Shown here piece after piece: positions 914-63,203 of a stretch of DNA of 64,000 bases. The translations under genes were made by a program, and so were the position numbers. The stretch comes from an uncultured Roseburia sp. (GTDB lineage: Bacteria; Bacillota; Clostridia; Lachnospirales; Lachnospiraceae). The DNA is taken from NCBI GenBank assembly GCA_947567625.1, contig CANONN010000007.1:4803-68802 (forward strand). Reading direction: 5' to 3'. The notes under the pieces are model-generated. The model did no database searches. It was not told where the DNA came from and worked only from the letters and a program-made list of their open reading frames with translations. The first letter of the stretch is position 1. The number at the start of each line of letters is the position of its first letter.

Positions 914-1005
914 GAAATAGAATAAAATTTATGTGACATTGGTTCAGCCTGCAACTGCTGAAATAGAATAAAATTTATGTGGCATTGGTTCAGCCTGCGA
1001 CTGCG
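914..1005 (+). repeat. 46-bp tandem duplication (2 units) of the 5' arm of family-1 element copy A
   Basis: 'gaaatagaataaaatttatgtgRcattggttcagcctgcRactgc' occurs at 914-959 and 960-1005 with 3 mismatches. Confidence 0.9.
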
Positions 1006-1125
1006 CACCTGCTGCGCAGTTAGCAGCCAGGAATGCCAAATGGCCAAAGAATCCGCCCCTTTGCCGCAGGCAAACTATAAATGGGGCGGATTCCGTAACA
1101 GTGAAGCGGCAGTCTGGACGGTTAC
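983..1125 (+). repeat. Family-1 structured intergenic element, copy A
   Basis: Shares hairpins and invariant blocks ('ACTWTAAAT', 'GATTCCGTAAC') with 36232-36375 and 62663-62808. Hairpins: ACTGCGCA-cctgc-TGCGCAGT (1000-1020) and CCGCCCC[TTTGCC-gca-GGCAAA]ctataaatGGGGCGG (1053-1089). Confidence 0.8.
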
Positions 1126-2181: not shown

Positions 2182-3318
2182 ATGGATTGTATCAGTATCA
2201 ATTATAAAAAGGTTCCGCTCGATATCAGGGAAAAGTATGCGTTTTCTGCCAAGGAGCAGACGGCATTTGCAGGTTTATTAAAAGGAAAATACGGCATTGA
2301 CTGTGTCGTGATCGTATCTACCTGCAACCGCAGTGAGCTCTACTTTTGCAGTGACGGGGACACGAGTGGGCGGATGGAACATGCTCTCGCGGAGTACAAA
2401 AATATTCCGCGGGAGGACATTTTAAATCATATCTACAGTTACCAGGGCGACCGCGCGCTCCGTCATCTTTTTTTTGTTGCCAGCGGCCTGGATTCTATGG
2501 TTCTCGGGGAGGACGAGATTCTTCATCAGGTGAAAGAGAGTTACGGACAGGCTTTGCGTGAGGGAAGAAGCTGTAATGAGATGAATATTGCGTTTCAGGG
2601 GGCGCTCTGTTGTGCGAAAAGCATAAAAACAGAGACGCTTTTGTCAAAAACGCCGGTCTCGACCGGCACGCTGGCGGCAAATACCATCGAAGAATTTTTG
2701 CACAAAGACCGCAATAAAAAAGTTCTGATCGTGGGAATTACCGGAAAAATCGGCGGTATTTTGGCCAAAAATCTCTACGGCAAAAACATCAAAAACATAA
2801 CAGGTACCAGCAGGAAGCATGTGAGCGTGACAGAGAGTGTAGTCTGTCCCGGCATTGTCATGACGGATTTTGCCAAGCGCTATGAGATTCTCGACGAGAT
2901 GGATGTGATCGTCAGCGCTTCCACAAGCCCCCACTATACCTTTACGGCGGAGAAGGTGAGGGAGTATTTAAAGACAGAGAAGCCGCGTATGTTTTTGGAC
3001 ATGGCCGTTCCCCGCGATATGGACAGGGCGATCGCCGGGCTTTCGGACTGCCGGCTGGTGGATATGGATGATTTTGGGCGTATGCAAACGAGCAATCACG
3101 GAATCAAGCAAAAAGAAGTGGTCAAGGCGCAGGCGCTTTTGGAGGAAAAACTCGACGAAACATTAAAAGACATGGCGATGTCATCGTTTATGGAGCAAAA
3201 GAGGGAGCTGTTTGAGCAGATGAAAAAGAGAGAGTTTGGCAGTGTTTTTTATCAGATGAAAGAGCATCTTTCGAGTGAAAATTTTAGGGCGTTGGTTGAG
3301 GCCGTGGAACAATTGTAG
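2182..3318 (+). CDS. hemA: Glutamyl-tRNA reductase
   Basis: 'VIVSTCNRSELYF' catalytic-Cys motif and 'VLIVGITGKIGG' nucleotide-binding loop. ATG 2182 follows GGAG at 2172-2175; the ORF-track start 2140 runs into the repeat element. First gene of a hem operon. Confidence 0.9.
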   Translation: MDCISINYKKVPLDIREKYAFSAKEQTAFAGLLKGKYGIDCVVIVSTCNRSELYFCSDGDTSGRMEHALAEYKNIPREDILNHIYSYQGDRALRHLFFVASGLDSMVLGEDEILHQVKESYGQALREGRSCNEMNIAFQGALCCAKSIKTETLLSKTPVSTGTLAANTIEEFLHKDRNKKVLIVGITGKIGGILAKNLYGKNIKNITGTSRKHVSVTESVVCPGIVMTDFAKRYEILDEMDVIVSASTSPHYTFTAEKVREYLKTEKPRMFLDMAVPRDMDRAIAGLSDCRLVDMDDFGRMQTSNHGIKQKEVVKAQALLEEKLDETLKDMAMSSFMEQKRELFEQMKKREFGSVFYQMKEHLSSENFRALVEAVEQL

Positions 3319-3338
3319 AGTGGCAGTGAGGTTGGACG

Positions 3339-3968
3339 ATGGCATATTTTCCATTATTTATCGATATTGCGGGGCAGTTTTGCGCCGTTGTGGGCGGCGG
3401 CAGGGTGGCCGAGGGGAAAATCCGGCAGTTACTGGAATTTGGCGCCGATGTGGCGGTGACGGCATGCACTGTGACAAGCCAGATCGCCCTGTGGCAGGAG
3501 GAGGGGCGGATTGCGGTGCATCTGCGGGAGTACCGGCCTGCCGATATTGCCGGAGCCCTGCTGGTGGTGGCGGCGACGGACGATGTTTCTTTACAGCGGC
3601 AGGTGGCGGCGCAGTGCAGGGAGCAAAAGATACCGGTCAATGTGGTGGACGTGCGGGAGCTATGTACCTTTTATTTCCCGGCGATTGTAAGGCGGGAGGA
3701 TGTCGTGGCGGCCGTGTCCACCGGGGGCAGTTCCCCGGCGCTGGCGGCAAAGCTGCGGCGGGAACTGGAGTGTGTGATACCCGAAACCTGCGGGCAGGCA
3801 GCGGCAATCATGGGAGCCCACAGAGAGTATGTTTTGACGCATGTGGCAGGCGCGGAGAAGAGAAAGCAGGTGTTTGAACAGATGCTTGAGATTGTGCTGC
3901 GCGAGGGGCGCCTCTCCGGCGAGCAGGTGCGCAATCTGTGCGCGCATGGCGCTGATGTATATCCTTAG
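3339..3968 (+). CDS. sirC: Precorrin-2 dehydrogenase / sirohydrochlorin ferrochelatase (CysG N-terminal, SirC/Met8-like)
   Basis: 'FPLFIDIAGQFCAVVGGGRVAEGKIRQLLEFGADVAV' Rossmann signature of siroheme synthase N-domain proteins. 209 aa, in hem operon context. Confidence 0.8.
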   Translation: MAYFPLFIDIAGQFCAVVGGGRVAEGKIRQLLEFGADVAVTACTVTSQIALWQEEGRIAVHLREYRPADIAGALLVVAATDDVSLQRQVAAQCREQKIPVNVVDVRELCTFYFPAIVRREDVVAAVSTGGSSPALAAKLRRELECVIPETCGQAAAIMGAHREYVLTHVAGAEKRKQVFEQMLEIVLREGRLSGEQVRNLCAHGADVYP

Positions 3969-4059
3969 GGCGTGCGGTATTTGCATGTATTAGAACACAT
4001 ATAAAGCGGCAGGTGTAAGAACATGTACAAAGCGGCAAAGCAACCTTCAGCGTTTCTAC

Positions 4060-4157
4060 TTGAGATTGGTAATGTGCAAGATCGAGTAGAAGGCAGCAAA
4101 GTGGCATATTGAGATTAGTAATGTGCAAGATCAAGTAGAAGGCAGCAAAGTGGCATA
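4060..4157. repeat. 49-bp tandem repeat, 2 units
   Basis: 'ttgagattRgtaatgtgcaagatcRagtagaaggcagcaaagtggcata' at 4060-4108 and 4109-4157. Preceded by an imperfect 26-nt x2 repeat at 3992-4043. Confidence 0.9.
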
Positions 4158-4355
4158 TGAAAGATCACGGAGGGAGAGGCAAAGAGGCATGTGAAAGATC
4201 ACGGAGGGAGAGGCAAGAAGCATGTGAAAGATCACGGAGGGAGAGGCAAAGAAGCATGTGAAAGATCACGGATGAAGCGGCAAAGGGGCATGTGAAAGAT
4301 CACGGAGGAAGGAAGCGGCATGTGAAACTCACGGAGGAAGGAAGCAGCTAAGCGG
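4154..4355. repeat. About 30-37-bp tandem repeat, 6 units, directly upstream of hemC
   Basis: Units start at 4154, 4188, 4221, 4255, 4289 and 4319. Consensus is 'catgtgaaagatcacggagggagaggcaaagaRg', degenerating toward hemC. Confidence 0.9.
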
Positions 4356-4375: not shown

Positions 4376-5353
4376 GTGGAAAAGACCGGAAATAAGAGGA
4401 TTTATGACAAGATCAGAGTTGGCACGCGCGGCAGCAGATTGGCGCGGCGGCAGACAGAGCTGTTGATATCGGCAGTCCAGAGGGCATACCCCGGCATACA
4501 GTGTGAAACAGTGATCATCCAGACTAAGGGAGATCAGATTTTAAACCGCCCGCTGCAAGAATTTGGCGGGAAGGGCGTTTTTGTCACAGAGCTGGAGCAG
4601 TTGATCGCGGCAGGTGAGCTCGACTGCGCCGTTCACTCAGCGAAGGATATGCCGATGGAGCTGGCAAGGGGACAGGACATTGTCTGTGTGCTGCCGCGGT
4701 CGGACGTGCGCGATGTGCTGATAACCAGGAAAGACAGGCTTGTCAGCCGTGAACATAAAGCGCTGATCGGAACGGGAAGTCTAAGACGCCGGGCACAGAT
4801 CGGCAGGCTGTATCCGCACGCGCAATTTTGCGGCATGCGGGGGAACATAGACACCCGTCTGGAAAAACTGCGCGGCGGCGCATGCGACGGTATCGTGCTT
4901 GCTGCCGCGGGGCTTGCGCGCGCAGGGCTTGACCGGGAAGCGGATTTGTCATATACATATTTCGAGCCGCAGGATGTGATACCGGCCGGCGGGCAGGCGT
5001 TTATCGCCGTCGAGGGATTGAGAGACCATCTTGACTTCTGGCGCCGCGTCGGCGACGGGCAGGCCGCACAGGAGCTGGCGGCCGAGCGGTATGTGATGCA
5101 AAAACTCGGGGCGGGCTGTCATGAGGCCGTCGGCGTATACGCGCAGATCGTTTCCTTACAGCCGACGGAGGGCATGGAAATGCCGGGCTGTCTGATGGAC
5201 AAAAATATCGTACTGCCGGAAAAGAGAATACGGCTGTCTGTCATGACGGAAAAAGACGGGCAGATATACCAAAACAGCGGGGAGACAAAGCTGCGCGACT
5301 GGGTTGTGCTGGCGGATGAATTGAGTGCGTCACTTAGAAAACTTCGTTTGTGA
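4376..5353 (+). CDS. hemC: Hydroxymethylbilane synthase (porphobilinogen deaminase)
   Basis: 'RVGTRGSRLARRQTE', 'GKGVFVTELE' and 'DCAVHSAKDMP' motifs. GTG start has GGGAGG 5 nt upstream. Confidence 0.9.
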   Translation: MEKTGNKRIYDKIRVGTRGSRLARRQTELLISAVQRAYPGIQCETVIIQTKGDQILNRPLQEFGGKGVFVTELEQLIAAGELDCAVHSAKDMPMELARGQDIVCVLPRSDVRDVLITRKDRLVSREHKALIGTGSLRRRAQIGRLYPHAQFCGMRGNIDTRLEKLRGGACDGIVLAAAGLARAGLDREADLSYTYFEPQDVIPAGGQAFIAVEGLRDHLDFWRRVGDGQAAQELAAERYVMQKLGAGCHEAVGVYAQIVSLQPTEGMEMPGCLMDKNIVLPEKRIRLSVMTEKDGQIYQNSGETKLRDWVVLADELSASLRKLRL

Positions 5354-6930
5354 CAGAAAGGCCGTTGGGAGGGATGGAGAGCATGGGAAAAGTGTCACTG
5401 ATCGGAGCCGGGCCCGGAGACGCAGGTCTCATTACGGTGAAAGGGATGGAATGTCTCAAAAGAGCCGACGTGATCGTTTACGACCGGCTGGCTTGTGATG
5501 CGCTGTTACAATACGCCAAAGCGGACGCCGTATTGATATATGTGGGCAAGAAGGCTGGCGCACATTCTGTGCGGCAGGAGGAAATCAACCGGATTTTAGT
5601 GGGGTGCGCGAAAAAATATACGCGTGTCGTGCGCTTAAAAGGCGGGGATTCGTTTGTGTTTGGCCGGGGTGGGGAAGAGATTGAAGCGCTGGAGCGGGAA
5701 AATCTGCCCTATGAGCTGATTCCGGGGGTGACGTCGGCTGTTGCAGCGCCGGAATCAGCCGGAATCCCGGTCACGCACCGGGGGGTCAGCCACAGCTTTC
5801 ACGTTGTCACCGGACACACGAAAGACGGGAGAGAGGCACTTGCCGAAGATTTTGAGATTTTGGCAAAGGCAAAGGGCACGCTTGTTTTTTTGATGGGGCT
5901 CGCCAATCTGGAATGGATTGCGGCGGGACTGACGGCGTGCGGGATGGCGGCCGATACGCCTGCGGCGGTGATTGCAGACGGTACGCTGCCGCAGGAAATC
6001 TGTGTAAAGGGTACGCTTGCCGACATTGCTAAGAGGGTGCGCCGGGCGGGGCTGCAATCACCTGCGGTGATCGTGGTCGGGAAGACGGCGGCTTTGTCGT
6101 TTCGCGACAGGCGAGAGCAGCGGGTCTTTGGAATGGTAGGAACACAGGAGATGATGGAGCGATTTGCGGACGGCCTGACGCGGCGTGCCGCCGATTTGCG
6201 TGCGGCGGCGCTTATGACCATGGAGCGGGTGCCTTTGCCGCAGGAGGGAGAGCTTGCCGGAATCATGAGGCAGATTGACGCTTACGGCTGGATTTTTTTT
6301 ACCAGCAGACAGGCCGTGCGGCAATTTTTTCAGACAGCGCGCACGGCGCGGCTTGATATGCGCAGACTGGCATCGTGCCGTTTTGCCGTGCTCGGCGAGG
6401 GCACGTATGATGCCCTGCGAGAATATGGGATTTATGCTGATTTTAAACCGGGGCAGGCGGACGGCGAGTCATTTGCGAAAGAATTTATAGACCGATGTCT
6501 GGGGGCCCGGAGCGCCGGCGTGCCGGAAACAGAGATACTGCTTCCCAGGGCCCGGCGGGGCGGCCGCAAGATGGTGGAACGGTTGCGTGACGCGGGAATT
6601 AAGGTCCGGGAGCTGTCGGTCTACGACGTGCAGGGCATGCCGACTGCGCGGTGGGACCTTGTGGAAACACTGCAAGATTATGTTTTTTTCTCGGCCTCGG
6701 GGGTGGAAGCATTTTTGGAACAGCTGAACAAGACGGGGATGCGATTGCGGGAGGGCAGCAGATGTTATGCAATCGGGGATTTGACCGCCAAGGCGCTGCG
6801 GCGCGCGTTCGGGGAGAGAGCGGCGATGGGGGAGAAGTGTGAAGTAAAGGCGGCGCCCGTCTCTTCGGTAGAGGGGCTTCTTGACCTGATCGCGGCGCAA
6901 GCGCCCGAATCCGGCGGGCAAATGAGCTAA
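5350..6930 (+). CDS. cobA: Bifunctional uroporphyrinogen-III C-methyltransferase / uroporphyrinogen-III synthase
   Basis: N-terminal 'VSLIGAGPGDAGLITVKGMECLKRADVIVYDRL' is the tetrapyrrole methylase signature. The C-terminal ~250 aa is HemD-like. The start could be 5350 (GTG overlapping the hemC stop), 5374 or 5383. Confidence 0.85.
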   Translation: MTERPLGGMESMGKVSLIGAGPGDAGLITVKGMECLKRADVIVYDRLACDALLQYAKADAVLIYVGKKAGAHSVRQEEINRILVGCAKKYTRVVRLKGGDSFVFGRGGEEIEALERENLPYELIPGVTSAVAAPESAGIPVTHRGVSHSFHVVTGHTKDGREALAEDFEILAKAKGTLVFLMGLANLEWIAAGLTACGMAADTPAAVIADGTLPQEICVKGTLADIAKRVRRAGLQSPAVIVVGKTAALSFRDRREQRVFGMVGTQEMMERFADGLTRRAADLRAAALMTMERVPLPQEGELAGIMRQIDAYGWIFFTSRQAVRQFFQTARTARLDMRRLASCRFAVLGEGTYDALREYGIYADFKPGQADGESFAKEFIDRCLGARSAGVPETEILLPRARRGGRKMVERLRDAGIKVRELSVYDVQGMPTARWDLVETLQDYVFFSASGVEAFLEQLNKTGMRLREGSRCYAIGDLTAKALRRAFGERAAMGEKCEVKAAPVSSVEGLLDLIAAQAPESGGQMS

Positions 6931-6969
6931 ATATTAAGAAGCAGATCAACAGAAAGGCAGGAAAATCAA

Positions 6970-7953
6970 GTGATAAACAGGATGAGGAGGCTGCGCGTCA
7001 ACGCGGCCATGCGTGCCCTGGTGCGCGAGACAAAAGTAGAGATCAGCGATCTGGTATACCCGGTGTTTGTCATCGAGGGAGAAAATATCAAAAATCCAAT
7101 CGATTCCATGCCGGGTATTTTTCAGTATTCGGTCGATCGTTTTGGCGAGGAGCTGGACAGAATAAAGGCGGCGAAAATCCCAGCGATATTGCTGTTTGGC
7201 ATTCCGGCGCATAAAGACGAGACGGGCAGCGAGGCTTACAACGACGAGGGGGTTACACAGCGGGCTATCCGCGCGATCAAGGCGAGCGCGCCCGATCTGC
7301 TTGTGATCGCCGATGTCTGTCTCTGCGAGTATACGTCTCACGGGCATTGCGGTGTTGTCTGCGGAGGAGAAATCTTAAACGATGAGACACTGCCGCTCTT
7401 GGCAAAGATGGCCGTAAGCTTAGCGAGGGCAGGCGCGGATATCATCGCGCCTTCGGATATGATGGACGGCAGAGTCGCGGCCATCCGCCGGGCGCTGGAC
7501 GAAAACGGTTTCCAAAACCGCGCCATAATGGCGTACAGCGCCAAGTTTGCCTCCGCGTACTATGCACCGTTTCGGGACGCGGCCCACTCGGCGCCTGGAT
7601 TTGGCGACCGCAAAACCTACCAGATGGACGGGGCCAACCGCAGGGAAGCGATGCGGGAATGTCTTATGGATATCGAGGAGGGGGCGGATATTATTATGAT
7701 AAAGCCCGCTTTGGCGTATCTGGATGTTTTGCGGGAGGCGGCGCAAAGAACCGATTATCCGCTGGCTGTGTATAATGTCAGCGGGGAATACGCTATGGTG
7801 AAGGCTGCGGCCGCAAACGGCTGGATTGACGAGCAAAAAATTGTGATGGAAAATCTGCTCGGCATGAAGCGGGCGGGGGCGAAGATCATCATTACCTATC
7901 ACGCGCTGGACGCGGCGGCCTGGCTCAAAGAAGAATGGGGGAATGAATGTTAG
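6970..7953 (+). CDS. hemB: Porphobilinogen synthase (delta-aminolevulinate dehydratase)
   Basis: '[12 protein letters not shown]', '[12 protein letters not shown]' (Schiff-base Lys region) and 'YNVSGEYAM'. Confidence 0.92.
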
Positions 7954-17769: not shown

Positions 17770-18438
17770 ATGCGAATTACCAATCAAATGTTAAGTGCGT
17801 CTGCGAGAAAGGCGGGGATTCCGCTCGAGGGCAATTCACTCTTGGATTACCTCAATAAAGACGACGGGGGCAACCTGCTCGACAGTTTAAATGGCAGCAA
17901 CAACTTAAATCAGTCGGTGTCCTCGGTCTACAAAAACAACTATGACAAGATTCAAAAGGCGGCGGAAGCATATGAGAAGCAGGCCAAAAGCTTAGCGGAG
18001 TCGGGAGAGGGGTCGATCTGGGCAAAGGCCAATGAGACGGGAGATCTGTCTGCGGTTTATGACAATATCAAAAGCCTGGTGGACAAATATAACAGCACGC
18101 TTGAGGCGGTGAGAAAGACGCCGGATTCGTTAAACACCTATTACATGCAGATGTTTACGCAGGGGGCTGCCGACCGCAAAGAGGTGCTTGAGGCGGCGGG
18201 CGTTACCGTCCAGAAGGACGGCACGTTAAAGCTGGATGAGGACAAGATGAAAGCCGCTGATCTGAAAGCGCTCGAGAAAGCTTTTGGCAGTGGCAGCGAT
18301 TTTCTGGCGCGGACCGGTTTTGTGGCTGCGCGGGCGGCAGATCACGCAAAGACAAGCGCCGAGAGCGTTACCAGCCAATACACAGCAAAGGGCAGCTTAA
18401 TCACTGCCGAGACCAGCAGGTACGATTTTCTTGGATAA
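17770..18438 (+). CDS. Hypothetical protein (222 aa)
   Basis: ATG 17770 is preceded by GGAGGAG with a 6-nt spacer; the ORF-track start 17713 is less likely. Hydrophilic, Ala/Lys/Ser-rich, with no recognisable domain. Confidence 0.55.
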   Translation: MRITNQMLSASARKAGIPLEGNSLLDYLNKDDGGNLLDSLNGSNNLNQSVSSVYKNNYDKIQKAAEAYEKQAKSLAESGEGSIWAKANETGDLSAVYDNIKSLVDKYNSTLEAVRKTPDSLNTYYMQMFTQGAADRKEVLEAAGVTVQKDGTLKLDEDKMKAADLKALEKAFGSGSDFLARTGFVAARAADHAKTSAESVTSQYTAKGSLITAETSRYDFLG

Positions 18439-18516
18439 AATCGCGACAATTCAGGCTGTCTTGTCCGAACCGTTACATAAAATCAAACGAAGATGAGTAA
18501 AATTATGAAAAGACGC

Positions 18517-20867: not shown

Positions 20868-21608
20868 ATGAGGAAAACAATGCTTGAATTGAGGAATATA
20901 GGTTTTCATACCGATGATGGAAAGGATATTTTAACGGAAGTCAATCTTGTTTTGGATGAAAAGATTGTTGTGATCACAGGGCCAAACGGCGGCGGCAAAT
21001 CTACGCTTGCAAAGATTATTGCGGGTATCATACAGCCTACGGAGGGAACCATATGGCTCGATGGCATGGATATCACGCACATGTCGGTGACGGAGAGAGC
21101 GCGCGTGGGCGTCAGTCTCGCATTTCAGCAGCCGGTGCGCTTTAAAGGACTTACGGTCAAAGATTTGATCACGATTGCCGCGGGGCGCGATCTGACGTTA
21201 AACGAGGCGTGCAAATATCTGTCCGAGGTGGGGCTGTGCGCCAAAGATTATATTGAGCGCGAATTAAATCAAAGCCTTTCCGGCGGCGAGATGAAGCGCA
21301 TTGAGATCGCGATGATTTTGGCCAGAGATTCCAAGTTTTCCGTTTTTGACGAGCCGGAGGCCGGTATCGATCTCTGGAGCTTTGGCAATTTAATTCATGT
21401 CTTTGAAAAGATGCACAGAGAAACGAAGGGCACGATTCTGATTATCAGCCATCAGGAGCGTATTTTAAATATTGCCGACAAGATCATCTATTTAAAAAAC
21501 GGCAGCGTGGAGCGGTATGGTTCCAGAGAAGAGATTCTGCCGGACTTGCTGCATGACACGGCAAAGGCGGCGGGCTGTAATATATTAATGGACAAACTGG
21601 AGGGCTAA
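20868..21608 (+). CDS. sufC: Fe-S cluster assembly ATPase SufC-like
   Basis: Walker A 'GPNGGGKST', signature 'LSGGEMKR' and Walker B 'FSVFDEPEAGID'. 246 aa with no TM partner. Alternative start ATG 20880. Confidence 0.8.
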   Translation: MRKTMLELRNIGFHTDDGKDILTEVNLVLDEKIVVITGPNGGGKSTLAKIIAGIIQPTEGTIWLDGMDITHMSVTERARVGVSLAFQQPVRFKGLTVKDLITIAAGRDLTLNEACKYLSEVGLCAKDYIERELNQSLSGGEMKRIEIAMILARDSKFSVFDEPEAGIDLWSFGNLIHVFEKMHRETKGTILIISHQERILNIADKIIYLKNGSVERYGSREEILPDLLHDTAKAAGCNILMDKLEG

Positions 21609-22530: not shown

Positions 22531-22571
22531 CAGGTTAAAAATCGTAACCGTTCAATTGTTTACCTGTTACT

Positions 22572-22623
22572 AAAAATCGGATGAAACATATGGTTTGTCA
22601 CCGTATGTTTCATCCGATTTTTT
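22572..22623 (+). terminator. Strong rho-independent (potentially bidirectional) terminator
   Basis: AAAAATCGGATGAAACATA-n13-TATGTTTCATCCGATTTTTT. The 16-bp perfect stem is flanked by A and T tracts. Confidence 0.9.
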
Positions 22624-36221: not shown

Positions 36222-36231
36222 CAGCTGAAAA

Positions 36232-36375
36232 GTAACAGTTCAGCCTGCAACTGCGCACTTGCTGCGCAGTTAGCAGCCAGTAGTGCCGAACAGTAAAAAA
36301 AGCCGCTCCTTTGCCGCAGGCAAACTTTAAATGGAGCAGATTCCGTAACAGGGAAGCCGAAGGCTGAACTGTTAC
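36232..36375 (+). repeat. Family-1 structured intergenic element, copy B
   Basis: Perfect 14-nt terminal inverted repeats GTAACAGTTCAGCC (36232-36245) / GGCTGAACTGTTAC (36362-36375). Internal hairpins AACTGCGCA-cttgc-TGCGCAGTT and GCTCC[TTTGCC-gca-GGCAAA]ctttaaatGGAGC. Confidence 0.85.
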
Positions 36376-36393
36376 GCTGAAAAGGAAATATAT

Positions 36394-37500
36394 ATGAAAA
36401 GAGTTATAATCTTCGGTTTTGGTGAGATGGGGAAAAAATTGACAGAGGAATGTCTCAGATATGACGCCGGGGTAGAGGTGCTTGCGATTGCCGACAATAA
36501 GGCGGAGGCTGCACCATATCATGGCATACCTGTCATCTTGCCGTCAGAAATAGGAAAATTCCTTTTTGATGAAATATGGGTTTGTACCGTTTATTTCAAA
36601 GAAATTATGCGGCAGCTTGTCGACGAATATGGTGTGGAACGGGAAAAAATACATTTTACGGAACCGGTTATGCCTGTTTTGGAAAAGAGACTGCGCAAAA
36701 AGTATGAGAAACAGCTCCGTAAAGGGGAAGCTGTTTCAGGAGAACTTGGTGAGGTACTGCAATATTTGAATCATAATCCGCTGCGCATGTATTGCTATGC
36801 GTTTTATGACGAATATCTGTACCGCGATACGCCTGTTTTTTATGACGAGAGGGCAGGCTTATATTTTGGGCTGTATGAGAATAAAAAAATGTATCTGGCC
36901 AAAAGATTTGATACGGAACAAAAGGCGAGGGCATATTTGAATGGGGTTCTGATGGAGCAGGATGAGCGCTCCCCCCATTGTTATTGGAATGACAGGAACA
37001 TGAAGCAGCTGAAAGGGGTAGGAGTGGACGTAGGGGCTGCCGAAGGCATATTTGCGTTGAAAATCATCAATCAGGCAGAACATATCTATCTTGCCGAGGT
37101 AGATTCCGAGTGGATAGAGGCATTGCACTATACGTTTGAGCCGTTTGAGCAAAAGGTGACGATTGTTCCGAAATTTATAGCGGATAAAGATGATGGACAA
37201 TCGGTAAGGCTGGATACACTGCTGAAGGAAGAGCGCGTTGATTTTTTGAAAATGGATATTGAAGGTGTAGAATATCAGGCGTTACAGGGGGCAGAAAATT
37301 TATTGGCGCATCATAATGTGCAATTGGCGCTGTGCGTGTACCACAATCAGGATGATAACCAAAAGATAGCACAGTGGCTGGGGGAACGCGGATACCGTAC
37401 CCGTAATTCACCGGGTTTTGTTGTCTGTCAGGGTGATTGGGAGCTTGAGGCGGATGCCGCTGACTTTAGGAGAGGTTTACTATTTGCCTGCAAAGAATAG
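36394..37500 (+). CDS. Rossmann-like module + FkbM-like methyltransferase
   Basis: 'KRVIIFGFGEMGKKL...LAIADNKAEAAPYHGIPV', then 'GVDVGAAEGIFALKI' and 'FLKMDIEGVEYQALQGA'. Confidence 0.7.
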   Translation: MKRVIIFGFGEMGKKLTEECLRYDAGVEVLAIADNKAEAAPYHGIPVILPSEIGKFLFDEIWVCTVYFKEIMRQLVDEYGVEREKIHFTEPVMPVLEKRLRKKYEKQLRKGEAVSGELGEVLQYLNHNPLRMYCYAFYDEYLYRDTPVFYDERAGLYFGLYENKKMYLAKRFDTEQKARAYLNGVLMEQDERSPHCYWNDRNMKQLKGVGVDVGAAEGIFALKIINQAEHIYLAEVDSEWIEALHYTFEPFEQKVTIVPKFIADKDDGQSVRLDTLLKEERVDFLKMDIEGVEYQALQGAENLLAHHNVQLALCVYHNQDDNQKIAQWLGERGYRTRNSPGFVVCQGDWELEADAADFRRGLLFACKE

Positions 37501-44676: not shown

Positions 44677-45552
44677 GTGAGGTATACTATTTTTAAAGAA
44701 CAAGAGAAAAAAATATATACAGATGGGAAATTTATATTTCCAGTCTATGATTTTGGGGCGAAAGCAGTGTTTCGCATAGAAACTGTGCGCAAATACTTTA
44801 TCAGCGATGTACTGGGTGTTCCGGCAGAACAGATACGGTCAGTCCGGTTGCTCAGCCCGTATCTAAGACGCAGGAGAGAGCGGGAGAAACAGGGCATCCT
44901 TGATGTGTTGATGGAGATGAATGACAATGGCAAGATCAATATGGAGATACAGACGAAGCCCTATAAATATTGGGATAAAAGAAATCTTTTTTATCTGTCC
45001 AAAATATATACGGATGACCTGGATGTAGGGCAGCATTATGAAAAATTAAAGAGAACCGTCTGTATCAGCCTGTTAGGTTTTAATTTGACAGAAAGGGAGG
45101 AGTATCATAGCAGATATCTTTTACGGGATGATCAGGGCAACATTTTTTCTGATATCTTGGAATTACATATCATTGAGCTAAAGAAGAAGTTAAACGGGAA
45201 AGAGCCGGTCGATGACTGGATCAGATTTTTCAATGCCAAAAGTGAGGAGGAGATCGATATGATAGAGACAAAAAACCCGGGAATACAAGAAGCCATCAGG
45301 GAATTAAAAAGAATCAGCCTTCCGCGTCTGGTGCGATCTTATTATGAGGACGCATTGAAAATGCGCCGTGACAGGTGGGCGAGGGAAGAGTATGTCAGAG
45401 ACGAAGGCATCAGTATCGGAAAGGAACAGGGTATCAGTTTGGCGAAAGTGGAGGCCGTAGAACAGGTTATGGCGGAGTTTCATGTACCGTTAGAGAAAGC
45501 CTGTGAGGTGGTTCAAATCTCCATAGAGAAATACCGTGAGGCAAAAAAATAG
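44677..45552 (+). mobile_element. Rpn-family / PD-(D/E)xK nuclease 'putative transposase' (PDDEXK_2)
   Basis: 'FPVYDFGAKAVF', 'ILDVLMEMNDNGKINMEIQTKPYKYWDKRNLFYLSKIY' (D...E.Q catalytic core) and 'ELHIIEL'. It is preceded by 340 nt of AT-rich non-coding DNA. Confidence 0.75.
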
Positions 45553-62634: not shown

Positions 62635-62662
62635 AACAGAAAAAGCAACAGAAAAACGATAG

Positions 62663-62808
62663 GTAACAGTTTGGCTCAGGACTTTGCACTCGCTGTAAAG
62701 TCCGTAAGAACGCGTATATCTAGCCAAGCGGGAATTCGGCTCTTTGTCGAAGACAAACTTTAAATGAGCCGGATTCCGTAACTATGAAGCCGAAGGCTGA
62801 ATCGTTAC
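62663..62808 (+). repeat. Family-1 structured intergenic element, copy C (divergent)
   Basis: GGACTTTGCA-ctcgc-TGTAAAGTCC; CGGCTC[TTTGTC-gaa-GACAAA]ctttaaatGAGCCG; 'GATTCCGTAAC'; GTAAC..AGCC-gaa-GGCT..GTTAC. Confidence 0.8.
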
Positions 62809-62904
62809 AACGATAGAGAAAGTCACGAAAAATATACTTTACAAAAGATGCAAAAGGGTTTAAAATAAGTTTCATTAATAAGACAAAGCAGTGACAAGAA
62901 GAGT

Positions 62905-63203
62905 ACGTCATGGAATGCAGCAGAGAAGGATGCCCGGGGGAAAGTCATAATTTTCGCTGTGTGGTGAAAGCATCCGGCAGAAAGTGACCGAAGACCACCT
63001 TGGAGCGGCCCTAATCAGGCACGGTGATTCCGTTATCATCACAATGAGATTTTTGTGGAGGAGTGAAATGTTTGACAGAGAGCGATTTCATGAAAGTGAA
63101 TGTGGGTGGAACCACGGTGAAGTATTTCCGTACAGGAAGCGTTTATCGTCCCGGCAGTAAGCAATAATGGCAAGTGCGCTGTTATGCTTACCGCCGTTTT
63201 TTT
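62905..63203 (+). promoter_or_regulatory. T-box riboswitch leader (probable Thr specifier ACC) with terminator
   Basis: AGAGA (62922-62926) sits in the Stem I apex region. The candidate specifier is 'GAAG-ACC-A' (~62991-62998). The T-box core is 'TGGGTGGAACCACGG' (63103-63117). The terminator is GGCAGTAAGCA...TGCTTACCGCC plus T7 (63153-63203). thrS lies downstream. Confidence 0.65.

Follow-up and report, generated by a model that had tools for sequence, protein, structure and literature searches.

A Promoter-Phased MITE Family with Palindromic Modules in Gut Lachnospiraceae

Introduction

Insertion at a set distance upstream of a promoter is known from the TnGBS conjugative elements and the ISLre2 insertion sequences, both of which use Mutator-like DDE transposases, termed 'p-MULT 3', according to Guerillot et al. 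2014 (PMC3942029). As described in that paper, and in Brochet et al. 2009 as cited there, these elements insert 15–17 bp upstream of the −35 hexamer of sigma-A promoters. Their target duplications are given there (PMC3942029) as 8 or 9 bp, their ends have a conserved terminal C, and the elements with nearly identical inverted repeats insert in both orientations. The same geometry is seen in ISLcr1 of a Lactobacillus plasmid, which has a 9-bp duplication and 16 nt from its right end to TTGCCG, and in a Lachnospiraceae element of the ISLre2 family in one of the metagenome loci collected here (L245; NF033529, 265 bits), where 16 nt are followed by TAGAAA-17-TATAAT.

Bacterial MITEs such as Correia/NEMIS, RUP, ERIC, and Nezha are small, non-coding, multi-copy, and intergenic, and they have terminal inverted repeats, target-site duplications, and a strong hairpin potential (PMC10969869). 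In a 2024 review of prokaryotic MITEs (PMC10969869), no family with promoter-phased insertion is mentioned.

Here, we describe a MITE family that occurs at three sites of a 64,000-nt stretch of DNA from an uncultured Roseburia sp. (contig CANONN010000007.1, positions 4,803 to 68,802), which is referred to as the window. The element is 142–146 bp long and has no ORF. The label is based on its terminal inverted repeats, a flanking duplication of constant length, its small size, the lack of an ORF, and the large number of copies; these features, together with the derivatives and the promoter phasing, are direct observations. At a probability of about 0.82, we read the element at the three window sites as a MITE with 14-bp terminal inverted repeats, 8-bp target duplications, DNA palindromes, and promoter-phased targets, and this figure covers the reading as a whole, that is, a trans-mobilised, promoter-targeted MITE whose palindromes belong to the DNA and not to an RNA fold. 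Weighing against it are the lack of an autonomous partner and of a clean empty site in the material covered, the single window copy at the canonical promoter distance, the ~48% of insertions next to which the consensus scan recognises no promoter, and the constraint seen in Pa and Pb. It resembles the described bacterial MITEs in all of the properties listed above and is a variant of the promoter-upstream insertion known from ISLre2 and TnGBS, carried by a non-coding element.

Copies of the Element in the Window

The first-pass annotation of the window had reported three copies of an element of ~145 nt, all on the + strand, and both an alignment and an independent repeat search bear this out. 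The copies (~144 nt) align at 79% mean column identity, the repeat search groups them as one family, and the sequence GATTCCGTAAC is found exactly three times in the window, once in each copy. The terminal inverted repeats of 14 bp and the 8-bp duplications that flank them were absent from that earlier description. The target-site duplications, which it had proposed to look for, are perfect at copies B and C and at both mini derivatives in the window, and they match at seven of eight positions at copy A.

Copy A (979–1125, + strand; a start at 982 is the less likely alternative) is degenerate. Its left end has decayed to GTGGCATTGGTTCAGCC where the family has GTAACAGTTCAGCC, and its probable 8-bp duplication reads AAATTTAT (971–978) and AAATTGAT (1126–1133). 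The 46-bp tandem duplication that had been noted in its 5' arm is real; it lies at 913–958/959–1004 on the + strand with 96% identity, spans the flank and the first ~23 nt of the copy, and repeats the −10 region of a strong promoter-like site at 899–928. Because copy A sits between this promoter-like site and the ThiF start codon at 1161, which comes 35 nt past the copy, it is probably transcribed as part of the 5' UTR.

In copy B (36232–36375, or 36224–36383 with its duplications; + strand), both the 14-bp terminal inverted repeats and the 8-bp duplication, GCTGAAAA at 36224–36231 and 36376–36383, are perfect. The copy lies between two FkbM-type methyltransferase genes, the ATG at 36394 coming 18 nt later, and a promoter scan around the copy gave no promoter at the canonical distance. 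An ENA contig (L203, 1670–3150) encodes a protein identical to the FkbM-type product of window positions 36394–37500, and there the gene is followed by DUF951, S6, SSB, and S18 genes in place of glycosyltransferases, which points to a rearranged polysaccharide locus of a related strain.

Copy C (62663–62808, or 62655–62816 with its duplications; + strand) is flanked by the perfect 8-bp duplication AACGATAG at 62655–62662 and 62809–62816. A sigma-A-type promoter, TTTACA-17-TAAAAT, follows at 62838–62866 on the + strand with 10 of 12 consensus matches, and its −35 hexamer begins 30 nt past the end of the copy, which is the canonical spacing of the family. An independent promoter scan finds this promoter as the only one near copy C, and copy C is the only one of the three window copies at the canonical distance. 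The promoter is predicted to drive the T-box leader at 62882–63156 upstream of a presumed thrS. This leader scores 61 bits (E = 1e-12), below the Rfam gathering score of 93, and is therefore missed by a default Rfam scan of the window.

Two mini derivatives are also present, both on the + strand. The first (18443–18476, or 18435–18484 with duplications) consists of 34 nt with the decayed repeats GCGACAATTCAGGC and GTCCGAACCGTTAC and is flanked by the perfect 8-bp duplication ATAAAATC. The second (22544–22570, or 22536–22578 with duplications) is 27 nt long, reads GTAACCGTT...ACCTGTTAC, and is flanked by the perfect 8-bp duplication TAAAAATC; an intrinsic-terminator-like hairpin lies just downstream of it. 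A separate repeat array of ~8 tandem units of 33–34 nt (...GGCATGTGAAAGATCACGGAGGGAGAGGCAAAGA...) at 4003–4311 occupies the gap from a sirohaem-synthase-like gene (3339–3968) to hemC (4376–5353), and two 49-nt units at 4060–4157 precede the array.

Ends, Family Size, and Derivatives

Across the family, 14-bp terminal inverted repeats mark the two ends of the MITE, 5'-GTAACAGTTCAGCC...GGCTGAACTGTTAC-3'. In an alignment of 65 complete copies, similarity starts at the first of these sequences and stops at the second, and the flanks are unrelated. The outermost base of the repeats is constant, and both ends terminate in C (...GTTAC). The 8-bp duplication is perfect in 33 and carries one mismatch in 14 of the ~50 complete copies of the genome set, and it is perfect in 19 of the 47 copies of the metagenome set, for which the end calls are cruder.

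The two sets were collected through different parts of the element. The genome scan covered one genome per species, was keyed on two conserved blocks, and gave at least 79 loci; the metagenome scan used the Pa hairpin, in the opposite half of the element, as its key and gave at least 120. This amounts to ~200 or more further copies in Lachnospiraceae genomes and gut metagenomes, and the family is commonly carried by gut Lachnospiraceae, to which nearly all of the genome-scan matches listed belong. In the genome scan, Hominisplanchenecus murintestinalis DSM 111139 has at least ~20 loci. A Eubacterium sp. MAG has at least ~27, with several matches at a fixed distance from a contig end, as is typical of a repeat that breaks assemblies. 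At L012 of a Eubacterium sp. MAG (minus strand, ~2795–2938), an orthologue of the window gene at 20868–21608 has a MITE in its 5' UTR, directly behind a promoter that reads TTGAAC-17-TATAAT and is followed by 5 nt; the corresponding window site has no MITE.

Among the metagenome matches listed, 54 are full copies and others are truncated. The mini derivatives span 27–60 nt and include forms of 60 nt that consist of the terminal repeats and Pa only (L291, L240) and forms of 32 nt that consist of the 3' hairpin Pc alone (L220, L303), while extra modules are inserted in three other copies (L299, L309, L318). Tandem insertions with one copy of the same 8-mer between them (L220, L278, L303) indicate that the same target is used repeatedly. 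The terminal repeat and the 8-bp duplication are also common to other MITE families with unrelated interiors. In one locus (L010), at least four tandem units of 103 nt (6614–7090) each start with the terminal repeat GTAACAGTTCAGCC, and a full MITE at 3297–3441 interrupts a further copy of this unit. A clean empty site was not seen: the single paralogous 'empty' site, which is in that locus, has a blurred junction, and copies A and B are in place on all ENA contigs that encode the identical flanking proteins.

The constant duplications and terminal repeats bear directly on a further explanation, in which the element is a REP/BIME-like or attC-like unit whose spread on folded single strands is due to a tyrosine (RAYT) transposase or to an integron integrase, and not to a DDE transposase. 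Strong hairpins, the intergenic positions, and the free-standing occurrence of Pc alone (~32 nt) would suit such a unit. The spread of REP and attC units, however, makes no 8-bp duplications, which are the rule here, the terminal inverted repeats have a constant outermost base, and the window ORFs scanned include neither a RAYT nor an integrase gene. Both the attC/integron and the REP assignments are rejected on account of the target duplications and terminal inverted repeats, and we regard this explanation as scarcely credible.

Promoter-Phased Insertion

TTGACA-like boxes stood out at one position of the flanks, and the position of the MITE relative to promoters was then scored with a simple consensus, in which each hexamer matches at four or more of six positions, the spacer is 16–18 nt, and the overall match is at least 9 of 12. 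An insertion is counted as phased when a −35 hexamer starts 27–31 nt beyond an element end. Among the 46 insertions of the genome set, an outward-facing promoter is phased past the right end in 19 cases and past the left end in five; shuffled flanks average 0.57 such cases and reach 3 at most. The metagenome set of 47 insertions gives 11 past the right end and 14 past the left (shuffled flanks: mean 0.5, maximum 3). Combined, 48 of 93 independent insertions (52%) are phased to a sigma-A-type promoter, where chance would give ~1. The promoter lies to the right in 29 of these, to the left in 18, and on both sides in one, and thus either end of the MITE can face it.

The −35 hexamer of the combined set starts at position 27 (2 cases), 29 (13), 30 (28), or 31 (6). 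The mode of 30 corresponds to 29 nt between the element end and the −35 hexamer, and it places the 8-bp target 21 bp upstream of this hexamer, roughly −64 to −57 from the transcription start. No further sequence motif is conspicuous between the target and the −35 hexamer in the flanks of the insertions, and ~48% of the insertions have no promoter that the simple consensus scan recognises.

The targets of the MITE are thus non-random and promoter-phased. Selection against harmful insertions could explain the intergenic bias but not phasing to within ±1 nt or the reuse of the same 8-mer. Targeted insertion upstream of promoters, and not a leader function, would account for copies being found in non-coding DNA a short way ahead of genes or leaders. 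The earlier generalisation that the element always stands just upstream of a + strand gene therefore reflects this insertion rule in part, and in part a coincidence among three copies.

A mechanism can be proposed in which a trans-acting transposase mobilises the MITE; it must act in trans, as the MITE encodes nothing. Such an enzyme would make 8-bp staggered cuts, which are typical of a DDE transposase, and may recognise either a promoter-bound complex or the geometry of the promoter DNA. Insertion 29 bp upstream of the −35 hexamer would then spare both the core promoter and the genes.

Palindromic Modules and Covariation

The interior of the MITE consists of three palindromic modules, Pa, a two-tier Pb with an outer and an inner part, and Pc. 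Pa is a perfect palindrome of 10 + 10 bp with a 5-nt spacer, GGACTTTGCA-N5-TGCAAAGTCC, and in the subfamily of copies A and B both of its half-sites are altered together, ACTGCGCA-N5-TGCGCAGT. Pc is a local hairpin in which an internal near-copy of the left repeat (GTAACAGTGAAGCC) pairs with the right repeat, and it contains a conserved tandem G·A mismatch. One subfamily has ...GAATAGTTAC in its right repeat and GTAACTAT... in the internal copy, and its left repeat is still GTAACAG. Pc compensates in this way with 9–10 two-sided cells at columns 125/146 and 126/145, where an end-to-end helix breaks with 17 unpaired cells. The end-to-end helix P1 predicted by RNAalifold is accordingly rejected as a conserved structure, its positions 6–7 being broken in 17 copies at the point where Pc compensates.

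The first-pass annotation had argued that the helices are kept through compensatory changes, and in this it was right. RNAalifold predicts 43 pairs on the three window copies, seven of them with two-sided change, and for Pa, Pb, and Pc in 55 distinct copies the count is 15 of 38 pairs, with 95.8% of cells paired. None of 500 shuffles reaches the observed pairing values, and slid controls come nowhere near either. The covariation is thus genuine, and it shows only that the master copies keep palindromes.

The palindromes are symmetric between the strands. G·U (44 cells in 20 pair columns) and A·C (39 cells in 19 pair columns) occur at equal frequency. Both strands fold significantly better than shuffles; for copy B, z is −4.71 (+ strand) and −4.60 (− strand). 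The structure of the family has no strand preference, and the hairpins are therefore DNA palindromes inherited from master copies. The single G–T pair of copy C, which had been taken as an argument for a + strand RNA fold or possibly an ssDNA fold, is a private mutation, since related copies have G–C there.

It had been suggested that the element is a dispersed cis-regulatory or small-RNA family, in which a fold in the + strand transcript acts upstream of the downstream gene. Helices that stay paired through two-sided changes would suit this proposal, as would a + strand fold significantly more stable than shuffles (z −3.5 to −5.6), the position of copies A, B, and C on the strand of their downstream genes, and a copy A that lies downstream of a promoter-like site and is probably transcribed. 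Against it stand the terminal inverted repeats and 8-bp target duplications, a minus strand that folds about equally well, and the symmetric G·U and A·C mismatches. Moreover, roughly half of the copies precede a promoter, in both orientations, and are hence outside the transcript, the genes downstream are unrelated to each other, and minis and truncated derivatives that lack most of the 'fold' keep their target duplications. A match to a known RNA family is likewise lacking. Rfam 15 gave none over the whole window at gathering thresholds, and for copy A with relaxed filters the best score was 13.7 bits (E = 1.4); a known family is thus rejected both by gathering threshold for the window and by E-value for copy A, and the Rfam check that had been proposed for the element ends without a match. 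We find no evidence of selection on a + strand RNA fold and consider such a role very improbable. An intrinsic terminator, already dismissed in the first-pass annotation, is rejected here as well, as no terminator-like site (GC-rich hairpin and U tract) occurs within or beside copies A, B, or C. Of the two candidates left standing earlier, the MITE/PATE-like element is upheld by the repeats, duplications, copy number, derivatives, and tandem re-insertions, and the cis-regulatory or small-RNA family is set aside.

The unpaired blocks described as invariant are so among the window copies and the copies of the first scan; variants appear in the metagenome scan. There, the block ACTTTAAAT also takes the forms ACTTGGAAT, ATTTGGAAT, and ACTTATAAAA; its apparent invariance arose because the first scan had selected on the conserved blocks.

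As DNA features, the palindromes may serve as protein-binding sites; alternatively, selection or templated correction may maintain their pairing in the master copies. Templated correction of quasi-palindromes is a mechanism able to keep arms paired, and it would fit the covariation pattern as well as would selection on pairing or symmetric protein half-sites. Subfamilies differ by two-sided changes in Pa and Pb, which reveal some constraint, either on pairing or on the symmetry of the half-sites.

One explanation places this constraint in a protein. It holds that the palindromes of the MITE are operators to which a dimeric protein binds, be it the transposase or a regulator of the host, that half-site co-variation between subfamilies follows the specificity of this protein and not nucleic-acid folding, and that phased copies wire promoters into a common circuit. 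The perfect palindrome of Pa with the joint change of both half-sites in the A/B subfamily would suit a dimer, the strand-symmetric mismatch statistics suit a feature of double-stranded DNA, and phased insertion keeps the register to the −35 hexamer constant. However, no protein is known to bind the palindromes, and with both orientations occurring, Pa and Pb have more than one register to the promoter. In addition, Pa and Pb are dispensable for mobility, since the same ends are found on MITE families of unrelated interior, and minis lack both modules. We therefore take an operator function to be quite improbable, and the MITE reading with inherited DNA palindromes is retained.

Relation to Known Systems and the Search for a Transposase

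The MITE and the ISLre2/TnGBS elements are alike in that both occur in Firmicutes and lie at a fixed distance upstream of a sigma-A −35 box. The 8-bp duplication and terminal C of the MITE fit the 8–9 bp and terminal cytosine of those elements, and it inserts in both orientations like the members with near-perfect inverted repeats. The spacing to the −35 box, in contrast, is 29 nt for the MITE and 16 nt for ISLre2/TnGBS, and so falls outside the range of 15–17 bp. The duplication is 8 bp, compared with 9 bp in the ISLre2 rows of the part of Table S1 (PMC3942029) used for comparison. Relative to the ISLre2 ends given in that part (GTAAGTGTCAA..., GAACGTGTAAA...), the MITE repeats (GTAACAGTTCAGCC) are only loosely similar, as GTAAnnGT. 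No ISLre2-family gene bounded by MITE repeats was found among the loci, and the MITE itself is non-coding.

Ends that begin GTAA together with 8-bp duplications are also features of the IS66/ISBst12 family, and the MITE has both. No IS66-type gene was seen near any MITE copy, and promoter targeting is not, to our knowledge, an IS66 property.

An autonomous element with the same repeats was sought in ~1.5 Mb of loci, plasmids, phages, viral contigs, and ISLre2 relatives, and none was found. Searches of copies B and C against plasmids and phages with blastn gave no match, and the 14-mer repeat has single chance matches only in viral contigs. Pairs of repeats 0.4–6 kb apart with a target duplication gave no credible case in any of the loci. 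At the protein level, tblastn of an ISLre2 transposase against all loci returned only L245, whose ISLre2 element has ends (GCTAGGGTAAAG...) unrelated to those of the MITE. Searches with ISLcr1 and with the L245 protein returned close relatives of those elements only, an ISLre2 profile had no match in viral contigs, and a plasmid search by protein had no match from Clostridia. Within the part of Table S1 of Guerillot et al. (PMC3942029) that was compared, no ends match the MITE and none contains CTGAACTGTTAC. A literature search with the sequence of the MITE family gave no match.

Two genes require separate mention. An IS1634-like ORF beside a truncated copy (L283) was rejected as a helper, as it is a single degenerate gene whose ends do not match. 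The only transposase-like gene among the window ORFs scanned lies at 44677–45552; it encodes a PD-(D/E)XK 'transposase' domain (PF12784, E = 1.5e-38) and has no relation to the ends of the MITE.

In locus L245 (3440–5310, minus strand), a full MITE, a 53-nt mini-MITE, and a complete ISLre2 element with a 484-aa transposase form a head-to-tail stack ahead of a single promoter. No spacer separates the ISLre2 element from the mini, and no target duplications are visible at the junctions of the stack.

Significance

With the present reading, a plausible 'novel structured RNA' drops off the candidate list, and a mobile-element mechanism takes its place. Promoter-upstream targeting in Firmicutes has so far been that of ISLre2/TnGBS at 16 bp. 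The MITE provides a second targeting geometry, with 29 bp and an 8-bp duplication, and thereby a second data point on how transposases read promoters.

A more far-reaching proposal is that gut Lachnospiraceae harbour an undescribed promoter-sensing transposition system, in which the transposase, at the upstream edge of the RNA-polymerase–promoter complex, gauges a distance of ~29 bp to the −35 hexamer, and palindromes placed in fixed register at hundreds of promoters could act as shared operators. We rate this as rather unlikely in its entirety; if true, the MITE would serve at once as a natural annotator of promoters and as a device for building regulons. In practical terms, these MITEs break short-read assemblies, and they mark real promoters in poorly studied gut anaerobes, where their positions could alter the regulation of the adjoining genes.
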